A DNA stretch of 39,471 nucleotides. It comes from Escherichia phage vB_EcoM_SHAK9454. The notes beneath the pieces were generated by a model. The model did no database searches and had not been told where the DNA came from. It worked only from the letters and a program-made list of their open reading frames with translations. Positions 8,706-39,471 of this stretch are shown one piece after another. The stretch is from sequence record OR594184; one strand, 5' to 3'. Made by a program: the position numbers and the translations under genes. Numbering within the stretch: the stretch's first letter is position 1; every line of letters begins with the position of its first letter.

Positions 8706-8780
8706 CAGACCTACAGTTACTGGCCTTGTGGCTGGGAGCACTCGCAGTATTCACTTTAATCCCACGCAGAAGAGGTTAAC

Positions 8781-8803
8781 CCTAAACTATCACTATAGGA
8801 TTA
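8781..8803 (+). promoter_or_regulatory. Phage RNAP promoter (phi1.1-like)
   Basis: CCTAAACTATCACTATAGGATTAG, +1 G at 8798. Confidence 0.8.
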
Positions 8804-8846
8804 GACTCAAGGTCATGACTCAAAGTCGTGGCCTTCATGATTAACC
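8801..8846 (+). promoter_or_regulatory. RNase III-like hairpin (late family, R1.1-like position)
   Basis: TAGACTCAAGGTCAT ... GTGGCCTTCATGATTAAC; 8-bp stem AAGGTCAT/GTGGCCTT with G-U pairs; same motif at 16014 and 38895. Confidence 0.5.
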
Positions 8847-8873
8847 CTAACTCATTCAATCAGGAGCTACACC

Positions 8874-32159: not shown

Positions 32160-35100
32160 ATGGCGACTCGTGGTATTCGCAATAACAATCCGGGTAACAT
32201 CCGGGTAAGTAAGGACCAATGGGAAGGAATGACTGGAGATGATGGCGCATTCGTCACCTTCGATAGTCCAGAGTCTGGCGTCCGAGCTTTAGGTAAAAAC
32301 CTGCTGTCCTACGGTCGCCAAGGTTATGATTCCATCGAGAAGATTATCAACAGATGGGCACCTCCTAACGAGAACGACACTAAGGCTTATATTGACTCAG
32401 TGGTGGCTGCAACTGGTATTCCAGCTACACAGAGTCTCGACCTATCGGACCCTGACACCCTGTCTTCTCTGGCACAAGCTATCAGCTTCCATGAGACAGG
32501 CTCACGGTACGACCCTGAAGTCTATCAGAAGGGAGTCGCACGGGCACTCAACGGCATTAGCCCAAAGACTCCACCAGTAAGCGCTAACGTATTTGACGCA
32601 CTCACGGAAGGACTCAAGGCTAAACCTAAAGTAGCTCTGGGTGAGAACCTTCCGACCGCTGCTGGTCTGAACATTGAGGGTCAAGCACCTGAAGCTCCCA
32701 ACGAATCGTTCGGTGAGATGTTCTATAAGGCTACTGGAGAGACCATGCAGGAGCAAGAGGACCGCTCTACGTGGTTCGGTTTCGGTGCGGCTACAGAAGC
32801 TGAAGTGAAGAACTCTATGGTCGGCGTGGCTATACGAGCTGGTCAGACTGAGGACTCACTGGATGTCATTGGCGATGTGTTCAACCCAACCAGATGGAAC
32901 AACCATAAGTGGTCTCGTGAGGAGCTAGACCAGATTCGTAACGCTGGGGTTTTGCCTCAGTATTACGGAGTCATTACTGGTGGCTCTCCTCAGAACCTGA
33001 CCGAGCTTATTAACTTGGCGCTTGAGAACCAGAAGTTGGACCAAGAGAAGGCCAAGGCTGGGACTGGTGCTCAACTGGCGGCTGGTGTGATTGGTGCTGG
33101 CGTGGACCCTCTGACCTACGTTCCTATTGCTGGGCAGGTAGGTAAAGGTGGTAAGCTAGTCAACAAGATGTTCACTGTGGCTGCTCAGTCTGGTGCTCTG
33201 GCTGGGGCATCCGAGATTGCTCGAACCTCAGTTGCTGGTGGGGACGCTCATGTTGCTGAAGCTATCCTTGGTGGTGCTCTTTTCGGTGGTGGCATGACTG
33301 CTATCGCTGATGGACTAGGTAGAGCCTTAGGTCGCAACACTAATGAGTTTGCTGGTCCAGCTACACGTTTGGAAGCTCGTGAGACCGCTCGTAACGTTGA
33401 TGGTCAGGACCTGTCCCGTCTCCCTATTCAGGAAGGTGAGCAGACCTTTAGTCATCAAGGCGTTAAGTTCGCTGACGTTCCGAATGAGCCGGGAAGTGTA
33501 CGATTAGAAGACGGTTCAATCCTGATTGGTGAGAACCCTCTGAACCCTAAGACACGTAAAGTCTTTGACGAAGTGATTGAGCCTGAACGTGCCGCTGCTG
33601 GTGTGAACCTTGGTGGGCTGACTGAGATTGGCCTGAAGCTGCTTCGGTCCGAGAACCCTGAGATTCGTGGAGTAGCTGCTGACTTAGTACGTTCACCGAC
33701 TGGTATGCAGTCTGGGGCCTCAGGTAAAATAGGGACAACTGCGTCAGACGTATTCGAGAGACTTCGTGCTGTGGACCATCGGTTCTACAATGACATCGAC
33801 GATGCGGTTACTGAGGCACTAAAGGACCCGTACTTCCAGACAGCATTCTGGCGAGACTCTGGCGCATTCCGTCAAGACATCTATCAGCGCGTGTCTATGG
33901 CTATCGAAGATGGTAGCGGAAACCTGAAGGCTGAATTGACTCCGGGAGAACTGAAAGTCTATGACCTGCTGAAGAACCAGTTCGACGCCAAGCGTGAGAT
34001 GATGGAGAACCCAGCGATGTTTGGTCGTCCAGACGCTCAGTCTATCTTTCCGGGTAGCCGCTTCAAGGGAACCTACGTCCCTCATGTGTATAGCAAACAG
34101 ATGAAGGAGCTGTACATCAAGGAGCTTGGGAGTCCAGAGGCGTTGCAGGAGGCCATCAAGAAGTCATGGTTGACCAGCTATGCGTCTCGACCTGAAGTCA
34201 AGAAACGTGTGGACGAGGCACTCTTAGAGGCTGACCCTACGTTGACTCCAGAAGGACTTGCGGCTGCGGTCGATAAGTACGCCAACGATAAGGCTTATGG
34301 TATCTCTCACACCGAGCAGTTCGAGCGTTCATCCGTAATGGAAGAGAACATCAATGGTCTGGTGGGTCTGGAGAACAACAGCTTCCTTGAGGCTCGTAAC
34401 CTGTTCGATAGCGATATGTCAATCGTCCTACCTAACGGTCAGACCTTCAGTGTCAACAACCTGCGTGAGTGGGACATGGACAAGATTGTCCCGGCCTACA
34501 ACCGTCGAGTTAATGGCGATATTGCTATCATGGCTGGTACAGGCAAGACCACGAAGGACATGAAGGACTTGGTTGAGACCCTGATGAACAAGGCTGGGGA
34601 TGACGGTAAGTTGAAAGGTGAAGTATCTACCTTACGTGACACTTTGAAGATTCTAACTGGTCGTGCTCGACGTGATGGTGCTGATGATGCGGCCTTCGCT
34701 ACCGTGATGCGCACAATGACAGACCTATCGTTCTTCGCTAAGAATGCCTACATGGGTGTTCAGAACTTAACGGAGATTGGTGGTATGCTGGCTCGTGGCA
34801 ACGTTCGTGCAATGCTGCATGGAGTCCCGATTTTCCGTGACCTAGCCTTCCGTAACAAGAAGGTTGGGGCCTCAGAGATTAAGGACCTGCACAATGTTAT
34901 CTTCGGTAAGGAACTGGATTACTCAATCCGTCCGTCTAAACAGGATGTCATTGACCGTCTGCGATCTTACAGTGACCTCGGTCGTGGTACAGCTACAGCT
35001 CTGGGGACTGCCACGTATTACACTGGCGAACTTGCAGTACGCTCTCCGTTCACTAAAGTCCTCAACGGTACGACCAACTACCTGTTAGATGCTGGACGTC

Positions 35101-36047
35101 AGGGCTTCCTGTCTGACATCGTGGAGCATAGCCTGACTGGTAGTAAGCGTAAGTTCGATGACCGCTGGCTGAAGACCGCTGGTATCTCTGACGAGCAGTG
35201 GAAGGGCATTAAGTCCCTAATCCGTGAGTCAGTGACTCGTGGTCCAGACGGGAAGTACACCATCAAGGATAAGAAGGCGTTCAGTCAGGACCCAAGGGCT
35301 ATGGACCTGTGGCGTATGGGTGACACCATCGCTGACGAGACGTTACTCCGGCCTCATAAGCTGTCAAACATGGACGCCAAGGCTTATGGTCCTCTCGCTA
35401 AGACTGTCCTTCAGTTTAAGAACTTCGTCATCAAGTCTATCAATGGGAGAACCATGCGAACCTTCTATAACGCCACGAAGAACAACAGAGCGATTGACGC
35501 TGCACTGTCGACCGTGATGTCTATGGGTCTGGCTGGAATGTACTACATGGCTCAGGCGCACATAAAGGCTTACGCTATGCAGGACGGTCGTGACCGAGAG
35601 TATCTGAAGCAAGCCCTTAACCCAACAATGATTGGCTATGCGGCGCTGTCCCGTAGCTCCCACTTAGGTGGTCCTCTTGGGGTCGCCAACATTCTGGGAG
35701 GCATCGCTGGATATGAGGACACTAAGATGCTCCGCTCGTCAATCCTTCCGCGATCACCTACCGAGAAGACGGAGAAGCCAATCGCCTTTGGTGCTGCTTC
35801 CAGTGGTCCGGTAATGAATGTTGTCGGCAACTTCCTTGAGCAGGTCCCGGCTTTCGGCTATGCTGCTAACGTTGGTGCTACGGCTTACAACTTGGCGGGA
35901 TACCTCAAGGCTGATACCCGTGTCAACGAGCGAGACTACATGACCGGGATGTATAACACGTTCCGTGAACTTGTACCGAATGACCCGATTACCCAGAAGT
36001 TGCTGCTTGGAACGTTTGAGGAGCAGGGCATCCACATCAAGGACTAA
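32160..36047 (+). CDS. Internal virion protein D (T7 gene 16-like) with a non-canonical N-terminal domain
   Basis: 1295 aa; from about residue 200 matches recalled T7 gp16 (STWFGFGAATEAEVKNSM, GDIAIMAGTGKTTKD, RPHKLSNMDAKAYG); first ~150 aa lack the SLT motif. Confidence 0.93.
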   Translation: MATRGIRNNNPGNIRVSKDQWEGMTGDDGAFVTFDSPESGVRALGKNLLSYGRQGYDSIEKIINRWAPPNENDTKAYIDSVVAATGIPATQSLDLSDPDTLSSLAQAISFHETGSRYDPEVYQKGVARALNGISPKTPPVSANVFDALTEGLKAKPKVALGENLPTAAGLNIEGQAPEAPNESFGEMFYKATGETMQEQEDRSTWFGFGAATEAEVKNSMVGVAIRAGQTEDSLDVIGDVFNPTRWNNHKWSREELDQIRNAGVLPQYYGVITGGSPQNLTELINLALENQKLDQEKAKAGTGAQLAAGVIGAGVDPLTYVPIAGQVGKGGKLVNKMFTVAAQSGALAGASEIARTSVAGGDAHVAEAILGGALFGGGMTAIADGLGRALGRNTNEFAGPATRLEARETARNVDGQDLSRLPIQEGEQTFSHQGVKFADVPNEPGSVRLEDGSILIGENPLNPKTRKVFDEVIEPERAAAGVNLGGLTEIGLKLLRSENPEIRGVAADLVRSPTGMQSGASGKIGTTASDVFERLRAVDHRFYNDIDDAVTEALKDPYFQTAFWRDSGAFRQDIYQRVSMAIEDGSGNLKAELTPGELKVYDLLKNQFDAKREMMENPAMFGRPDAQSIFPGSRFKGTYVPHVYSKQMKELYIKELGSPEALQEAIKKSWLTSYASRPEVKKRVDEALLEADPTLTPEGLAAAVDKYANDKAYGISHTEQFERSSVMEENINGLVGLENNSFLEARNLFDSDMSIVLPNGQTFSVNNLREWDMDKIVPAYNRRVNGDIAIMAGTGKTTKDMKDLVETLMNKAGDDGKLKGEVSTLRDTLKILTGRARRDGADDAAFATVMRTMTDLSFFAKNAYMGVQNLTEIGGMLARGNVRAMLHGVPIFRDLAFRNKKVGASEIKDLHNVIFGKELDYSIRPSKQDVIDRLRSYSDLGRGTATALGTATYYTGELAVRSPFTKVLNGTTNYLLDAGRQGFLSDIVEHSLTGSKRKFDDRWLKTAGISDEQWKGIKSLIRESVTRGPDGKYTIKDKKAFSQDPRAMDLWRMGDTIADETLLRPHKLSNMDAKAYGPLAKTVLQFKNFVIKSINGRTMRTFYNATKNNRAIDAALSTVMSMGLAGMYYMAQAHIKAYAMQDGRDREYLKQALNPTMIGYAALSRSSHLGGPLGVANILGGIAGYEDTKMLRSSILPRSPTEKTEKPIAFGAASSGPVMNVVGNFLEQVPAFGYAANVGATAYNLAGYLKADTRVNERDYMTGMYNTFRELVPNDPITQKLLLGTFEEQGIHIKD

Positions 36048-36065
36048 ACTATCACTATAGGAAAC
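36043..36065 (+). promoter_or_regulatory. Phage RNAP promoter (phi17-like)
   Basis: ACTAAACTATCACTATAGGAAACT overlapping the gene 16 stop. Confidence 0.85.
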
Positions 36066-36111
36066 TGGAGGCGCTACCATAGGTCTCCGTTTAAATCACA
36101 AAGGAGGCATA

Positions 36112-38292
36112 ATGTCCACGATTACACAATTCCCTTCAGGAAACACTCAGTACAGGATAGAGTTCGACTACCTAGCCAGAACGTTTGTTGTTGTTACGCT
36201 GGTGAATAGCTCTAACCCTACCCTGAACCGTGTACTGGAAGTTGGTCGAGATTACCGATTCCTTAATCCAACGATGATTGAGATGTTGGCTGACCAATCA
36301 GGTTTCGACATCGTTCGTATTCACCGTCAGACTGGAACTGACTTAGTGGTAGACTTCAGGAATGGCTCAGTGTTGACAGCTAGTGACCTTACCAATTCAG
36401 AGCTTCAGGCTATCCATATTGCAGAAGAAGGTCGAGACCAAACGGTTGACTTAGCGAAGGAATATGCCGATGCTGCTGGTAGCTCTGCTGGCAACGCTAA
36501 GGATAGCGAGGACGAAGCACGCCGAATCGCTGCGAGTATCAAGGCAGCTGGTAAAATTGGCTATATTACCCGTAGCTCCTTCGAGAAAGGCTTCAACGTT
36601 ACAACATGGAACGAGGTCCTGCTATGGGAAGAGGATGGTGATTATTACCGCTGGGATGGTATGCTTCCAAAGAACGTTCCCGCTGGTTCAACTCCTGAAT
36701 CATCTGGTGGTATTGGGATGAGTGCGTGGGTTAGTGTTGGTGATGCGTCACTTAGAGCAAACCTGTCTGATAGCGATGGCGCTAAATACATAGGCAGTGG
36801 AGAAAGGACATTACTTGAGCACAACAATGATGTTTTGCACTCAAAAGACTTTCCAACACTGCAGGCAGCTATAGATGCATCTTTGCAAAAAAATGATCTA
36901 CTGGTGTCTCCTGGCAATTATACTGAAAAAGTTACTATTGGAAACGCGCAGTTAAAAGGTGTTGGCGGGGCCACGGTACTAAAAACTCCGGCAGACTTTA
37001 CAAACACTGTTCAGGTTAATTTAGCTACACCTCATTGGCAATTCCGCCATAGTGGTGGTTTTGCTATAGATGGTTCCGGGACAACCGGGGCCGTAGGTAT
37101 TAGTTTTGACCCGTCAGACCAATATTCCGGGCGTCATAATTTTAGTGATTTATACATCCACAACATCAACAAGGCCATTCAGAAGCCTTCCGGGAACATC
37201 GGCAATACGTGGAGAAGTATTGGGGTATCTACGTGTGATTGGGGGTATTACGCGATTAGTGGCTCGGAGATGCATTGCGGGGCCGATACCCTCTACAATA
37301 TCCACTTCGACGGCATCTCCACCTATGCCGTCTACCTAAACGGTACTGTCGATAACGGTGGGATAGGCGGATGGTGGCTTAAAGACTCCATTATTGAGGC
37401 TTCCGGAGGCGGCGGGATATACTTAAAAAGCAAATCGGGTGACTGTCCTACATCTCCATGCGGGGTATCCAATGTATGGATGGAAGCTATTGCAACATCA
37501 TCGGCTGTTCAGGTAGATGGCGTGGCGCAAAAACCGCGAGTTCTCAAGTTGGTAGACACCGCGATATTCTTTGCTGAGTATTCTTATCTCAACAACATCG
37601 AGCTATCCAACTCCAACTTAGTAACTTATGGTTGCCGTTTTGACAACGCTGATGGTAATCAGGATATTGTAGTGGATGCACAAAGCACCATTGTAGCCCA
37701 CGATGTGTATTTAAACGGCAGTTCTGGAAAGGACGTTATTGTAGAGTCTGTCGCGTCGCAATCCGCAACGATAGCCACTACAAACTTGTCTCTACGAGGA
37801 AATTTAACAAGGGGACGAGTGTTTAATACGCCGACGGGGAATAAGTTAAAAGCTATCACATTTGACTCAGGTAGCCATAATTTTTCTGGTAGCGGTACCG
37901 TTAACGGTTCGACTGTATCTGACGGACTTCACGCCGCTACATGTACCGAATTTTCATTCCCTGGGTCCGGTTTATATGAAATGGTAGCGTCAAGAACGAC
38001 ACTTACATCCGGTAGATGGTACGTGTGGGGCGTCAACTCTCGCCTCCAATCAGGAACAGCAGATGTGAGTATAACGTTAGGTATTACTATGGGTAGCGTT
38101 TATACTAAGTCTGGTGAGTGGATTAGCACTTTCGGTGTAGGAAAGGCATCTACCACTGGCACTGTAGCGCTATACGTTTCCACAGGAGGAGGTTCGGGAG
38201 CTACGGTCAGATTCAGTGACTTTTTCATCGCTGAGTTTACGACGCAAGCTCAGGCTTTATCTTTCGCCAATTCAAGGATGTCGTTATCATAA
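36112..38292 (+). CDS. Tail fiber / tailspike: T7 gp17-like N-terminal adaptor fused to a beta-helix (depolymerase-like) domain
   Basis: N-terminus YRIEFDYLARTFVVVTL...RDYRF...VDFRNGSVLTASDL...IHIAEEGRD is T7 gp17-like; remainder is G/N/S/T-rich with repetitive rungs; GC and codon usage drop from about 36780. Confidence 0.85.
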   Translation: MSTITQFPSGNTQYRIEFDYLARTFVVVTLVNSSNPTLNRVLEVGRDYRFLNPTMIEMLADQSGFDIVRIHRQTGTDLVVDFRNGSVLTASDLTNSELQAIHIAEEGRDQTVDLAKEYADAAGSSAGNAKDSEDEARRIAASIKAAGKIGYITRSSFEKGFNVTTWNEVLLWEEDGDYYRWDGMLPKNVPAGSTPESSGGIGMSAWVSVGDASLRANLSDSDGAKYIGSGERTLLEHNNDVLHSKDFPTLQAAIDASLQKNDLLVSPGNYTEKVTIGNAQLKGVGGATVLKTPADFTNTVQVNLATPHWQFRHSGGFAIDGSGTTGAVGISFDPSDQYSGRHNFSDLYIHNINKAIQKPSGNIGNTWRSIGVSTCDWGYYAISGSEMHCGADTLYNIHFDGISTYAVYLNGTVDNGGIGGWWLKDSIIEASGGGGIYLKSKSGDCPTSPCGVSNVWMEAIATSSAVQVDGVAQKPRVLKLVDTAIFFAEYSYLNNIELSNSNLVTYGCRFDNADGNQDIVVDAQSTIVAHDVYLNGSSGKDVIVESVASQSATIATTNLSLRGNLTRGRVFNTPTGNKLKAITFDSGSHNFSGSGTVNGSTVSDGLHAATCTEFSFPGSGLYEMVASRTTLTSGRWYVWGVNSRLQSGTADVSITLGITMGSVYTKSGEWISTFGVGKASTTGTVALYVSTGGGSGATVRFSDFFIAEFTTQAQALSFANSRMSLS

Positions 38293-38436
38293 AAACAACC
38301 TCAGCCGAAGCGGGTTATTTATCATCAGAACGGTATTGAATCATCGAAGGTTGTGGAGGTAGAGGCTAACTACACGTTGACCAACGTATGATAACAACTT
38401 TGGGTCACGGACGACCCGCTTTAAACTGGAGGTTTT

Positions 38437-38631
38437 ATGATTGAGTTAGACTTCAAGAATGAGGTCCTTAAAGCCTCTCCTATCGTCGGGACCGCTGCGG
38501 CTGATGGTGCCAGTCGGTTCTTCTTCGGACTTACACTGAACGAATGGTTCTACGTTGCAGCTATCGCGTACACCGTTGTCCAGATTGGTGTGCTAGTCTA
38601 TAAAACGATTAAAGGAGGTGGTAAAACATGA
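38437..38631 (+). CDS. Holin (T7 gene 17.5-like)
   Basis: ASPIVGTAAADGASRFFFGLTLNEWFYVAAIAYTVVQIG near-identical to recalled T7 gp17.5. Confidence 0.92.
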   Translation: MIELDFKNEVLKASPIVGTAAADGASRFFFGLTLNEWFYVAAIAYTVVQIGVLVYKTIKGGGKT

Positions 38632-38891
38632 CGCAGATGGACTTAGAGAAGTTCCTCTTGATGCTTGATACTGAGCGTGCTCGACTTATGCTGCAAGACT
38701 TGCGGGATGACACTAAGCGTTCACCTCAGCTCTACAACGCCATTGAGAAGCTGCTTGCTCGTCACAACTTTGTGATAAGCAAGGTGTCTGTTGACGAGAA
38801 GACGCTGGCTGATATGGAGGCCCTGAACGCAGAGTACGATAAGGTGCTTTCAGCGACTGAGGATAATGACACCGGGTATGGCGTTCAATAA
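38628..38891 (+). CDS. Terminase small subunit (T7 gene 18-like)
   Basis: 87 aa; ATG overlaps the holin stop; position before Rz and the terminase large subunit. Confidence 0.88.
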   Translation: MTQMDLEKFLLMLDTERARLMLQDLRDDTKRSPQLYNAIEKLLARHNFVISKVSVDEKTLADMEALNAEYDKVLSATEDNDTGYGVQ

Positions 38892-38894
38892 GTG

Positions 38895-38940
38895 TTAGAC
38901 TCAAGGTCATTACTGTATGTAGTGGCCTTTATGGTTAACA
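38895..38940 (+). promoter_or_regulatory. RNase III-like hairpin (late family, R18.5-like position)
   Basis: TAGACTCAAGGTCAT ... GTGGCCTTTATGGTTAAC. Confidence 0.5.
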
Positions 38941-38992
38941 CTAACTAGTGGAGGAGACTCTACGTGCAATCTGATAAACCGGGAGGGCAACT

Positions 38993-39442
38993 ATGCTCGA
39001 ATTTTTAAAGAGAGCGGCTCCGTGGTTACTTGCAGCAGTGATGTTTGCTGGTGGCTACCACACCGCTAACAATAAGTGGGAGGCTAAGGTAAATGAAGAA
39101 TACACCTCGAATCTTAAGGCATCGGAAGATACAAGGCTTGCTGTCCAAGCTGAAGTCAACAAAGTGTCCAAACGGTTTCAGGACGAAATGTCCTCGCTGG
39201 AAGGCAGCACTGATAGGATTATTGCTGATCTTCAGTCTGACAATAAGCGGCTGCGCATCCGAGTCAAGCCCACGAGTGGAACCACGCAAAGTGACGGTCG
39301 ATGCGTCATTGATGACTACGCCGAACTTGATGAACGAGATGCTAAACGTCTTATCGCCATCGGAGTGAAAGGAGACAAGTGGATTAAGGCCCTTCAGGAC
39401 ACTGTGAGAGCCTTACAGCAAGATAAGGAGGTGACGCATTGA
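38993..39442 (+). CDS. Rz-like i-spanin (T7 gene 18.5-like)
   Basis: 149 aa; N-terminal transmembrane segment APWLLAAVMFAGGY then charged coiled-coil-like region. Confidence 0.85.
   Translation: MLEFLKRAAPWLLAAVMFAGGYHTANNKWEAKVNEEYTSNLKASEDTRLAVQAEVNKVSKRFQDEMSSLEGSTDRIIADLQSDNKRLRIRVKPTSGTTQSDGRCVIDDYAELDERDAKRLIAIGVKGDKWIKALQDTVRALQQDKEVTH
39093..39368 (+). CDS. Rz1-like o-spanin lipoprotein nested in the +1 frame of Rz (T7 gene 18.7-like)
   Basis: Signal and lipobox ALIGLLLIFSLTISGC; the true start may be an internal codon of this frame. Confidence 0.6.
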   Translation: MKNTPRILRHRKIQGLLSKLKSTKCPNGFRTKCPRWKAALIGLLLIFSLTISGCASESSPRVEPRKVTVDASLMTTPNLMNEMLNVLSPSE

Positions 39443-39471
39443 GTAAAGACTTAGTGGCGCGTCAGGCGCTA
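39439..39471 (+). CDS. Terminase large subunit, 5' end (continues at 1..1731)
   Basis: AAGGAGG 39425-39431, then TTG 39439 (or GTG 39454) in a frame that runs off the window end in register with position 1. Confidence 0.7.
   Translation, partial: MSKDLVARQAL

Follow-up and report, generated by a model that had tools for sequence, protein, structure and literature searches.

The window analyzed here is the whole 39,471-nucleotide (nt) stretch of Escherichia phage vB_EcoM_SHAK9454 (sequence record OR594184), read on one strand, 5' to 3'. The subject is the tailspike gene at positions 36112 to 38292, which joins a T7-type tail adaptor to a receptor-binding module. The gene and its parts are as follows (aa, amino acid).

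36112..38292, plus strand: tailspike or tail fibre gene (gene 17 equivalent), 726 aa, from the list of open reading frames (ORFs)
36112..36561, plus strand: predicted T7 gp17-type N-terminal tail adaptor, then long helices (aa 95-148); aa 1-150; from Pfam, PDB and the structural model
36562..36750, plus strand: predicted Tail_spike_N (TSP1/Gp66-type) domain, the end of the conserved anchor; aa 151-213; from Pfam, PDB and the structural model
36750..36775, plus strand: 5' crossover zone at the motif ...AWVSVGDASL..., the end of Tail_spike_N; from the edges of homology to IMEP24 and Golestan
36775..38292, plus strand: exchangeable receptor-binding module, aa 222-726; helical cap, beta-helix and beta-sandwich
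37225..38115, plus strand: nested recombinant tract with siphovirus (Kagunavirus) alleles, aa ~372-668, ~0.9 kb; its flanks, 36780-37080 and 38130-38289, are of the LM33_P1 type

DNA identity and gene order assign the window to a T7-like phage, genus Kayfunavirus; over the first 25 kb it is ~94% identical to LM33_P1, 101136BS1, ST0223, and others. A gene for a gp16-type internal virion protein lies 5' of the tailspike gene, and the holin, small terminase, and Rz genes lie 3' of it, in the order found in LM33_P1. The gene thus occupies a T7-like late-operon position, after the gp16 type and before holin and terminase, and has a phage promoter of its own. Its DNA is 96% identical to that of LM33_P1 gp17 (YP_009324518.1; Kayfunavirus LM33P1) over 100% of the gene, and the whole gene was found at 95.6-96.2% DNA identity in eleven published Kayfunaviruses. 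Ten relatives of the LM33_P1 type have been sequenced (HC12, HC13, 6925, 22664BS1, 101136BS1, 101118UKE1, LNA5, Emlis, and others). The protein is 97% identical over its full length to the representative of the LM33_P1 cluster (P0001), falls into the same 90% cluster, and matches positions 1-736 of PHROG 27367, "tail fiber protein," with aa 1-726 (1323 bits). LM33_P1 gp17 has the same 726 aa, the same three-layer architecture, the same genomic position, and a 144-nt gap behind it; it differs in that ~0.9 kb of the module in SHAK9454 carries Kagunavirus alleles. On these matches, the tailspike counts as a new allele within the LM33_P1 gp17 type (PHROG 27367). The fusion architecture, as judged from the same alignments, is already described and is common to eleven other Kayfunaviruses, so it is not private to SHAK9454.

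A preliminary description of this DNA took the first ~150 residues to be T7 gp17-like, in full accord with the domain searches. Pfam PF03906 (Phage_T7_tail) matched aa 10-115 (E 2.6e-16; 60.2 bits versus a cut-off of 25.2), and the T7 gp17 N-terminal structures 7boz, 8dsp, and 8e4g matched aa 6-116, which correspond to T7 residues 12-122 (E ~1e-16 to 1e-17). The likeness to T7 gp17 comprises this tail-attachment domain and the location of the gene after gp16. In the PDB search, no T7 gp17 match extended beyond aa 116, where the T7-type tip domain was looked for, and the similarity is gone past about aa 150. T7 gp17 continues into a coiled-coil shaft and a small fibrous tip, whereas the protein studied here continues into Tail_spike_N and a beta-helix module. 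The helices at aa 95-148 come from the predicted model, which has low confidence in that part. The same description let the module follow the adaptor directly; the adaptor stands, but the anchor consists of two parts, and the Tail_spike_N domain was overlooked. Pfam PF18668 (Tail_spike_N) matched aa 152-211 (E 7.9e-20; 71.2 bits versus a cut-off of 25), the CBA120 TSP1/3/4 structures matched aa 145-229 (E 1e-16 to 1e-18), and the model confidence score (pLDDT) of this domain was 78-88. The structure 9vvr_A could be aligned over aa 1-225 with no gap; about ten residues are substituted, every one of them beyond aa 58.

The borders of the module were mapped by comparing the DNA of the gene with that of other phages. 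Kayfunaviruses outside the LM33_P1 type had only nt 1-643 of the gene in common with it; in IMEP24, 97% DNA identity held up to 36750 and homology stopped there. Kagunavirus siphophages shared nt 664-2183 of the gene at 90-92% identity, and homology to one of them, Golestan, started at 36775. Because the two matches abut in this way, the 5' junction is placed at 36750-36775, and the breakpoint proposed earlier, about nt 36780, was accurate. The crossover, as located by these alignments, is at the end of the Tail_spike_N domain. On the other side, 92% DNA identity to Kagunavirus tailspikes extended from 36775 to two bases beyond the stop codon (36775-38294), and the 3' junction in the siphovirus comparison is the stop codon itself.

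The Kagunavirus tailspikes that share the module (Guernseyvirinae, siphoviruses; Golestan, fEg-Eco06, SCS44, phiEc3/4, and 22664BS2) resemble it from aa ~222 to the stop, with 87% protein identity and 95-100% DNA identity in the central tract. Their anchors are wholly different (661-aa proteins without the T7 adaptor), as is their virion type, and their downstream gene is convergent and 28 nt away. Two of the 661-aa Kagunavirus-type proteins in the database clusters, P0002 and P0010, carry the same module behind two unrelated N-terminal anchors. One type has a Tail_spike_N domain ending in GAWVSVGDASL, the motif that ends the P0010 anchor, and the other has no Pfam domain; since these anchors differ, anchors too have been swapped, in addition to modules. 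A homologous module with 64% protein identity (P0061) was found in the tail fibre of ES17, a podovirus with a 75-kb genome, and in myPSH1131/myPSH2311. DNA of the ES17 type is 74% identical over nt 664-1526 of the gene, and the ES17 protein differs in its length of 1021 aa and its other anchor. The ES17 paper itself points out the similarity to LM33_P1 (PMC7885116).

Database searches found ~62 related protein clusters, and the family grew only from 59 to 64 proteins when the profile was searched again. Among 45 homologues, the anchors comprised Tail_spike_N (19 proteins), the P22 Head_binding domain (8 proteins), and Phage_T7_tail (2 proteins). The module is thus found behind a T7 adaptor, behind Tail_spike_N alone, behind the Pfam-less N-terminus of the Golestan type, behind a P22 head-binding domain, and in longer proteins of 842, 1021, and 1167 aa. 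One copy lies in a P22-like prophage beside an integrase, and another lies in a 46-kb siphovirus (GpJ-type). Together with the 92% identical DNA in Kagunavirus, the occurrence behind at least four other anchors bears out the proposal of an exchanged receptor-binding module; horizontal exchange is supported, and the mosaic can be read directly from the aligned DNA. These alignments show the cassette to be a mobile unit, with its 5' edge at the end of Tail_spike_N and its 3' edge in a conserved terminator-plus-box element directly behind the stop codon. Modular exchange of receptor-binding domains with conserved flanking DNA motifs has been described in lytic coliphages, and motifs one and three of that study were proposed as recombination hotspots for these domains (Virol J 2023, PMC10408124). 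The 5' junction mapped here is at the position of motif one, and the post-stop element is at that of motif three; the O25b-type module was not covered there (LM33, Golestan, and O25 are unmentioned).

The base composition of the gene changes mildly at the junction, from 48.3% guanine plus cytosine (GC) before nt 36780 to 46.2% after it, as opposed to 49.8% in the whole window. This places the C-terminal part at the 5th percentile among windows of equal size, with no 200-nt stretch under 42%. The preliminary description called this part AT-rich, which is right in direction but overstated in size. Its claim of different codon choices held strongly, within synonymous families: in the C-terminal module versus the other large ORFs, TTA accounted for 39% versus 9% of leucine codons, CTG for 6% versus 40% of the same, ATA for 28% versus 11% of isoleucine codons, and AAA for 59% versus 23% of lysine codons. 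By codon-usage likelihood, the whole tailspike gene ranked lowest of 27 large ORFs, and the C-terminal module alone was lower still. Codon choice, and not GC content, is the real compositional signal. The expected richness in glycine, asparagine, serine, and threonine was found as well (39% in aa 226-726 versus 24% in the remaining proteome). The sequence had also been called repetitive; a beta-helix fold underlies that character, but repeats at the level of sequence were neither sought nor seen. In Golestan, the GC content of the module is 46.7% and that of the flanks is 51-52%. Since the module is GC-poor in podovirus and siphovirus alike, its composition appears foreign to both carriers, and as a clue to the direction of transfer it points to neither as the donor.

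An AlphaFold model of the monomer was built on the alignment of the 45 homologues. Its pLDDT was 79.7 overall and mostly 85-98 over aa 250-726. In the model, aa ~224-260 make up a helical cap, aa ~261-585 a right-handed beta-helix of ~320 residues in short strands, and aa ~590-726 a C-terminal beta-sandwich of longer strands. In Foldseek the best agreement was with CBA120 TSP4 (E 6e-16), and the closest matches were the O-antigen tailspikes CBA120 TSP4/3/1, Sf6, and P22; the family profile reached a "right-handed parallel beta-helix repeat" protein (E 1.7e-6). The central domain is thus predicted to be a right-handed parallel beta-helix, and the beta-helix anticipated after the T7 adaptor was recovered in the model in place of a T7-type fibrous tip. 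Identity to the solved O-antigen tailspikes (CBA120 TSP1-4, P22, Sf6, HK620) is only 9-17% in the helix, their catalytic residues are not transferable, and the C-terminal domain, which is like a carbohydrate-binding module (CBM), is unlike theirs. In the 45 homologues, two acidic residues, E458 and D522, were invariant, and D392, D425, E429, D482, E489, D511, and D514 were at least 90% conserved. By this conservation, E458 and D522 (invariant) together with D392, D425, and E429 (nearly invariant) are candidate catalytic residues.

The only new element in the gene is the internal recombinant tract; otherwise, the architecture is a textbook tailspike pattern. Identity to LM33_P1 was 98-100% across the anchor and 300 nt into the module, 84-97% at ~37200-38100, and 99% thereafter. 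Identity to Golestan mirrored this pattern and reached 100% over 37875-38075. We compared 148 diagnostic sites at which podovirus alleles (LM33_P1, LNA5) differ from siphovirus alleles (Golestan, fEg-Eco06, 22664BS2). The alleles were of the podovirus type at 39 of 39 sites in 36780-37080, of the siphovirus type at ~65 of 70 sites in 37225-38115, and again of the podovirus type at 36 of 36 sites in 38130-38289. They formed 13 runs, versus at least 48 in 100,000 permutations. Substitutions that belong to the tract include V347L, D410N, GGGGAWW to GGIGGWW, M580K, and P667S. None of the six full-length Kayfunavirus cluster members examined had the nested-tract substitutions, and the exact 726-aa protein was not found in a collection of about 15 billion sequences. 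Because the allele blocks switch within the module, the relatives lack the substitutions of the tract, and the exact protein was not found, the alignments show that this allele arose when part of the interior of the module was later replaced by exchange between phages of different morphotypes. More tentatively, the 0.9-kb tract might record gene conversion below the domain level that took place recently while a T7-like podovirus and a Kagunavirus infected one O25b host together, and the roughly 15 aa changes in beta-helix and sandwich might retune the range among O25b/ST131 sub-lineages. We regard this as possible but rather doubtful. If true, it would mean that receptor-binding domains are edited piecemeal across virus families, besides being swapped as a whole.

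Taken together, the gene very probably encodes the sole receptor-binding tailspike of a Kayfunavirus and belongs to the LM33_P1 gp17 type; in it, a T7-style anchor carries an exchangeable beta-helix cassette that probably binds and cleaves the O25b O-antigen. The protein is built in three layers: the T7 gp17-type N-terminal domain, which would dock it to the tail, the Tail_spike_N domain, which closes the conserved anchor, and a cassette of ~505 residues predicted to fold into a right-handed parallel beta-helix and a C-terminal beta-sandwich. By analogy with T7 gp17 and other beta-helix tailspikes, it probably assembles as a trimer, with six copies on each virion. The beta-helix probably binds the O-antigen of the host and cleaves it, allowing the phage to move down the lipopolysaccharide (LPS) layer to the outer membrane. 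In this phage, a second, later exchange has swapped ~0.9 kb inside the cassette for a siphovirus allele.

The choice of target follows from the hosts of module-bearing phages. LM33_P1 was isolated on an ST131-O25b:H4 strain (PMC5434335). The host of the Kagunavirus 22664BS2, strain DSM22664, is O25b-positive (PMC8614997). The Kayfunavirus 22664BS1 and 22664BS2 both carry the module and are named after DSM22664, although the host of 22664BS1 was read from the name only. Since module-bearing phages have O25b hosts, the target is probably the O25b O-antigen of E. coli. Dufour et al. (2016, J Antimicrob Chemother) reportedly found LM33_P1 to be dependent on O25b LPS. The preliminary description pointed to an encapsulated host; going by the hosts of the relatives, the clue leads instead to the O-antigen, that is, to O25b LPS of ST131-type E. 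coli. To our knowledge, the O25b O-antigen is without uronic acid; a glycoside hydrolase with carboxylate catalysts is, for this reason, more likely than a lyase.

Several observations weigh against this assignment. LNA5 (MZ311861.1, marked UNVERIFIED) has a tailspike 96% identical to the one studied here, and its listed host is the rough strain K-12 MG1655; if this is true, the O-antigen is not strictly required. Copies of the module were found in none of 5,426 complete E. coli genomes, in near or distant mode, so prophages gave no cross-check of the serotype. PDB matches were confined to aa 1-233, with no solved structure for the module; Pfam found no catalytic domain in the single sequence; and a comparison of the module with Pfam and PDB yielded no catalytic family. 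The beta-helix fold is common to hydrolases, lyases, epimerases, esterases, and non-enzymatic adhesins, and since proteins that do not cleave have it too, the fold alone is no proof of cleavage. Lastly, the ES17 protein is described as binding heparan sulfate on mammalian mucosa, with no emphasis on O-antigen cleavage (PMC7885116).

Three other explanations were weighed. The module could be a depolymerase of capsule (K-antigen), with the host recognized by its capsule. ST131 strains are often encapsulated, and many capsule depolymerases from phages of Klebsiella and Acinetobacter have a matching fold, as does the K5 lyase. The type phage of the genus, K1F, has a capsule-degrading spike (PMC10408124). 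No sialidase match that would indicate a K1F-type endosialidase domain was found here in Pfam or PDB. Given that the module-bearing phages of two morphotypes were isolated on O25b-positive strains, that LM33_P1 is reportedly limited to O25b by way of LPS, and that the closest Foldseek matches are O-antigen tailspikes, we consider recognition of a capsule to be quite improbable. The compositional shift might, in turn, reflect amino acid content or weak codon selection in a late, low-copy structural gene that has descended vertically as a whole. GC content differs by just 2-3.5 points, proteins rich in glycine, asparagine, serine, and threonine do shift base composition, and the complete gene is common to the eleven Kayfunaviruses. 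Yet the shift is present inside synonymous codon families, the siphovirus DNA is 92% identical with sharp edges at 36775 and at the stop codon, homology in other Kayfunaviruses is confined to nt 1-643 of the gene and to the final ~90 nt of the gap behind it, and the module is equally GC-poor within a siphovirus locus of 51-52% GC. Vertical descent of the gene as a unit is, on this evidence, scarcely credible.

The module could also bind a glycan without cleaving its backbone, either as a pure adhesin or as a pectinesterase-like beta-helix esterase that strips O-acetyl from the rhamnose of O25b, with an effect like that of G7C gp63.1; heparan sulfate binding would be possible, as in ES17. The motifs GNYTE, GADTLY, and GTVD occur in the sequence, and we take them to recall CE8 enzymes. 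The family profile gave a weak pectinesterase match (8tne, E 0.3), and Foldseek gave the pectin methylesterase 2ntb (E 1e-3). ES17-TFP, 64% identical, is reported to have a weak "pectinesterase" signature and to bind heparan sulfate proteoglycans (PMC7885116). The pectinesterase similarity is, however, under significance, D414 of GTVD, which would have to serve as the CE8 nucleophile, falls where the family alignment is variable and gapped, and the glutamine of the QDTL motif is replaced by Ala391. The invariant E458 and D522, elsewhere in the helix, suit a glycosidase better. A module that binds without backbone cleavage is therefore judged unlikely, and the bolder idea of an O-acetyl esterase, or of a binder of both bacterial and mammalian glycans like ES17, would be less likely than the gene-conversion reading of the nested tract. 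Identity as a CE8 pectin methylesterase was rejected, with a best sequence match of E 0.3, D414 not conserved, and Gln changed to Ala391.

The finding reveals no new mechanism. It concerns the protein that sets the host range of a phage type already used experimentally against ST131-O25b, a pandemic and multidrug-resistant lineage of E. coli. Knowing exactly where the cassette begins (the end of Tail_spike_N) and ends (the terminator-plus-box element) could help to engineer swaps of host range. Podovirus and siphovirus versions of one module still trade internal segments, which bears on how fast specificity can drift. For the design of cocktails, two "different" phages may have one receptor and one route of resistance in common.

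The region downstream of the tailspike gene contains the following features.

38293..38345, plus strand: degenerate terminator-like hairpin (38297-38316) and conserved box ATTTATCATCAGAACGGTATTGAATCATCGAAG, the first ~50 nt of the gap
38343..38436, plus strand: leader of the holin gene as conserved in Kayfunaviruses, GGAGG at 38429-38433; fills the final ~90 nt of the gap
38437..38631, plus strand: holin gene, 64 aa, the next gene 3' of the tailspike gene, from the ORF list; the syntenic genes of LM33_P1 and IMEP24 are annotated as holin

The gap between the tailspike and holin genes measured 144 nt (38293-38436), rather than the 145 nt given before, and is as long as that of LM33_P1. It had also been contrasted with tight packing elsewhere, but its length is ordinary for the window: other late genes are bordered by gaps of 64-126 nt, and there are longer gaps too, such as 236 and 423 nt. 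Alignments indicate that the gap is composite, with a terminator-plus-box element followed by the conserved holin leader. The element consists of a GC hairpin, whose stem sequence varies between phages, and then a box, TTATCATCAGAA(C/G)GGTATTGAATCATCG. As a whole, 38293-38345 was found only in LM33_P1-type Kayfunaviruses, but the element goes along with tail-fibre and tailspike genes in other families of phages. It aligns just past the stop codon of a tail protein in PhAPEC5 (Schitoviridae; annotated as a terminator) and in IMEP24, and ~280 nt 3' of the tailspike stop codon in Segz_1. Placed like motif three of PMC10408124, this conserved, terminator-like non-coding element after the stop codon is common to SHAK9454, Gamaleyavirus, and other genera; the hairpin here is degenerate and the local fold weak (-4.4 kcal/mol, z -0.5), but the box is intact. 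Homology to IMEP24 returns at 38343, and the holin leader is 95-98% identical in K1F and in Salmonella and Klebsiella Kayfunaviruses that have other receptor-binding modules; in K1F, the shared part is these final ~90 nt. The gap at the same place in IMEP24 is 373 nt, as opposed to 144 nt here, so gap length appears to vary with the cassette. Scans of the gap found no phage promoter of the 23-nt family present in the window and no convincing intrinsic terminator.

Positions 38297-38316 can pair with 38413-38434 over the ribosome-binding site of the holin gene (AAGCGGGT/ACCCGCTT and AACCTCA/TGGAGGTT), and folding of the whole gap gave long-range pairing with short arms (z = -2.1). Translational control of the holin by this pairing is not claimed: the z value is too weak and the arms are short.

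Upstream of the tailspike gene, two further features were found.

36041..36063, plus strand: phage RNA polymerase promoter GGACTAAACTATCACTATAGGAA, directly 5' of the tailspike gene, one of ten copies of a 23-nt family
36102..36107, plus strand: ribosome-binding site AGGAGG, 4 nt ahead of the ATG, by direct reading

The ten 23-nt copies of the promoter family, with the core CTAAACTATCACTATAGG, are at 1824, 5458, 8779, 11525, 14067, 20156, 22995, 23982, 28765, and 36041. A 52-nt element in the gap after the small terminase gene (38895-38946) is 85% identical to one after the promoter at 8779 (8801-8852); it also occurs at 820-837 and 16012-32 and may be a conserved processing or regulatory site.

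Over 33112-39471, identity to LM33_P1 was patchy: 98-100% in most of gene 16 and the tailspike anchor, 92-93% at 33112-33500, and 86% near 35512-35711 and 38512-38711. This pattern suggests frequent short recombination tracts across the late region.

The window is a circular permutation that is cut within the large terminase gene; the Rz gene ends at 39442. In LM33_P1, the terminase gene has 1764 nt, of which 4 nt overlap Rz, so by analogy the terminase start here would be at 39439, with the gene continuing through 1-1731 (33 + 1731 = 1764 nt). A 193-nt unit is present in two perfectly identical tandem copies, at 2424-2616 and 2617-2809. In a T7-like genome, such a pair looks like the direct terminal repeats of the left and right ends, fused head to tail, in which case the physical ends of the genome would fall at 2616/2617.

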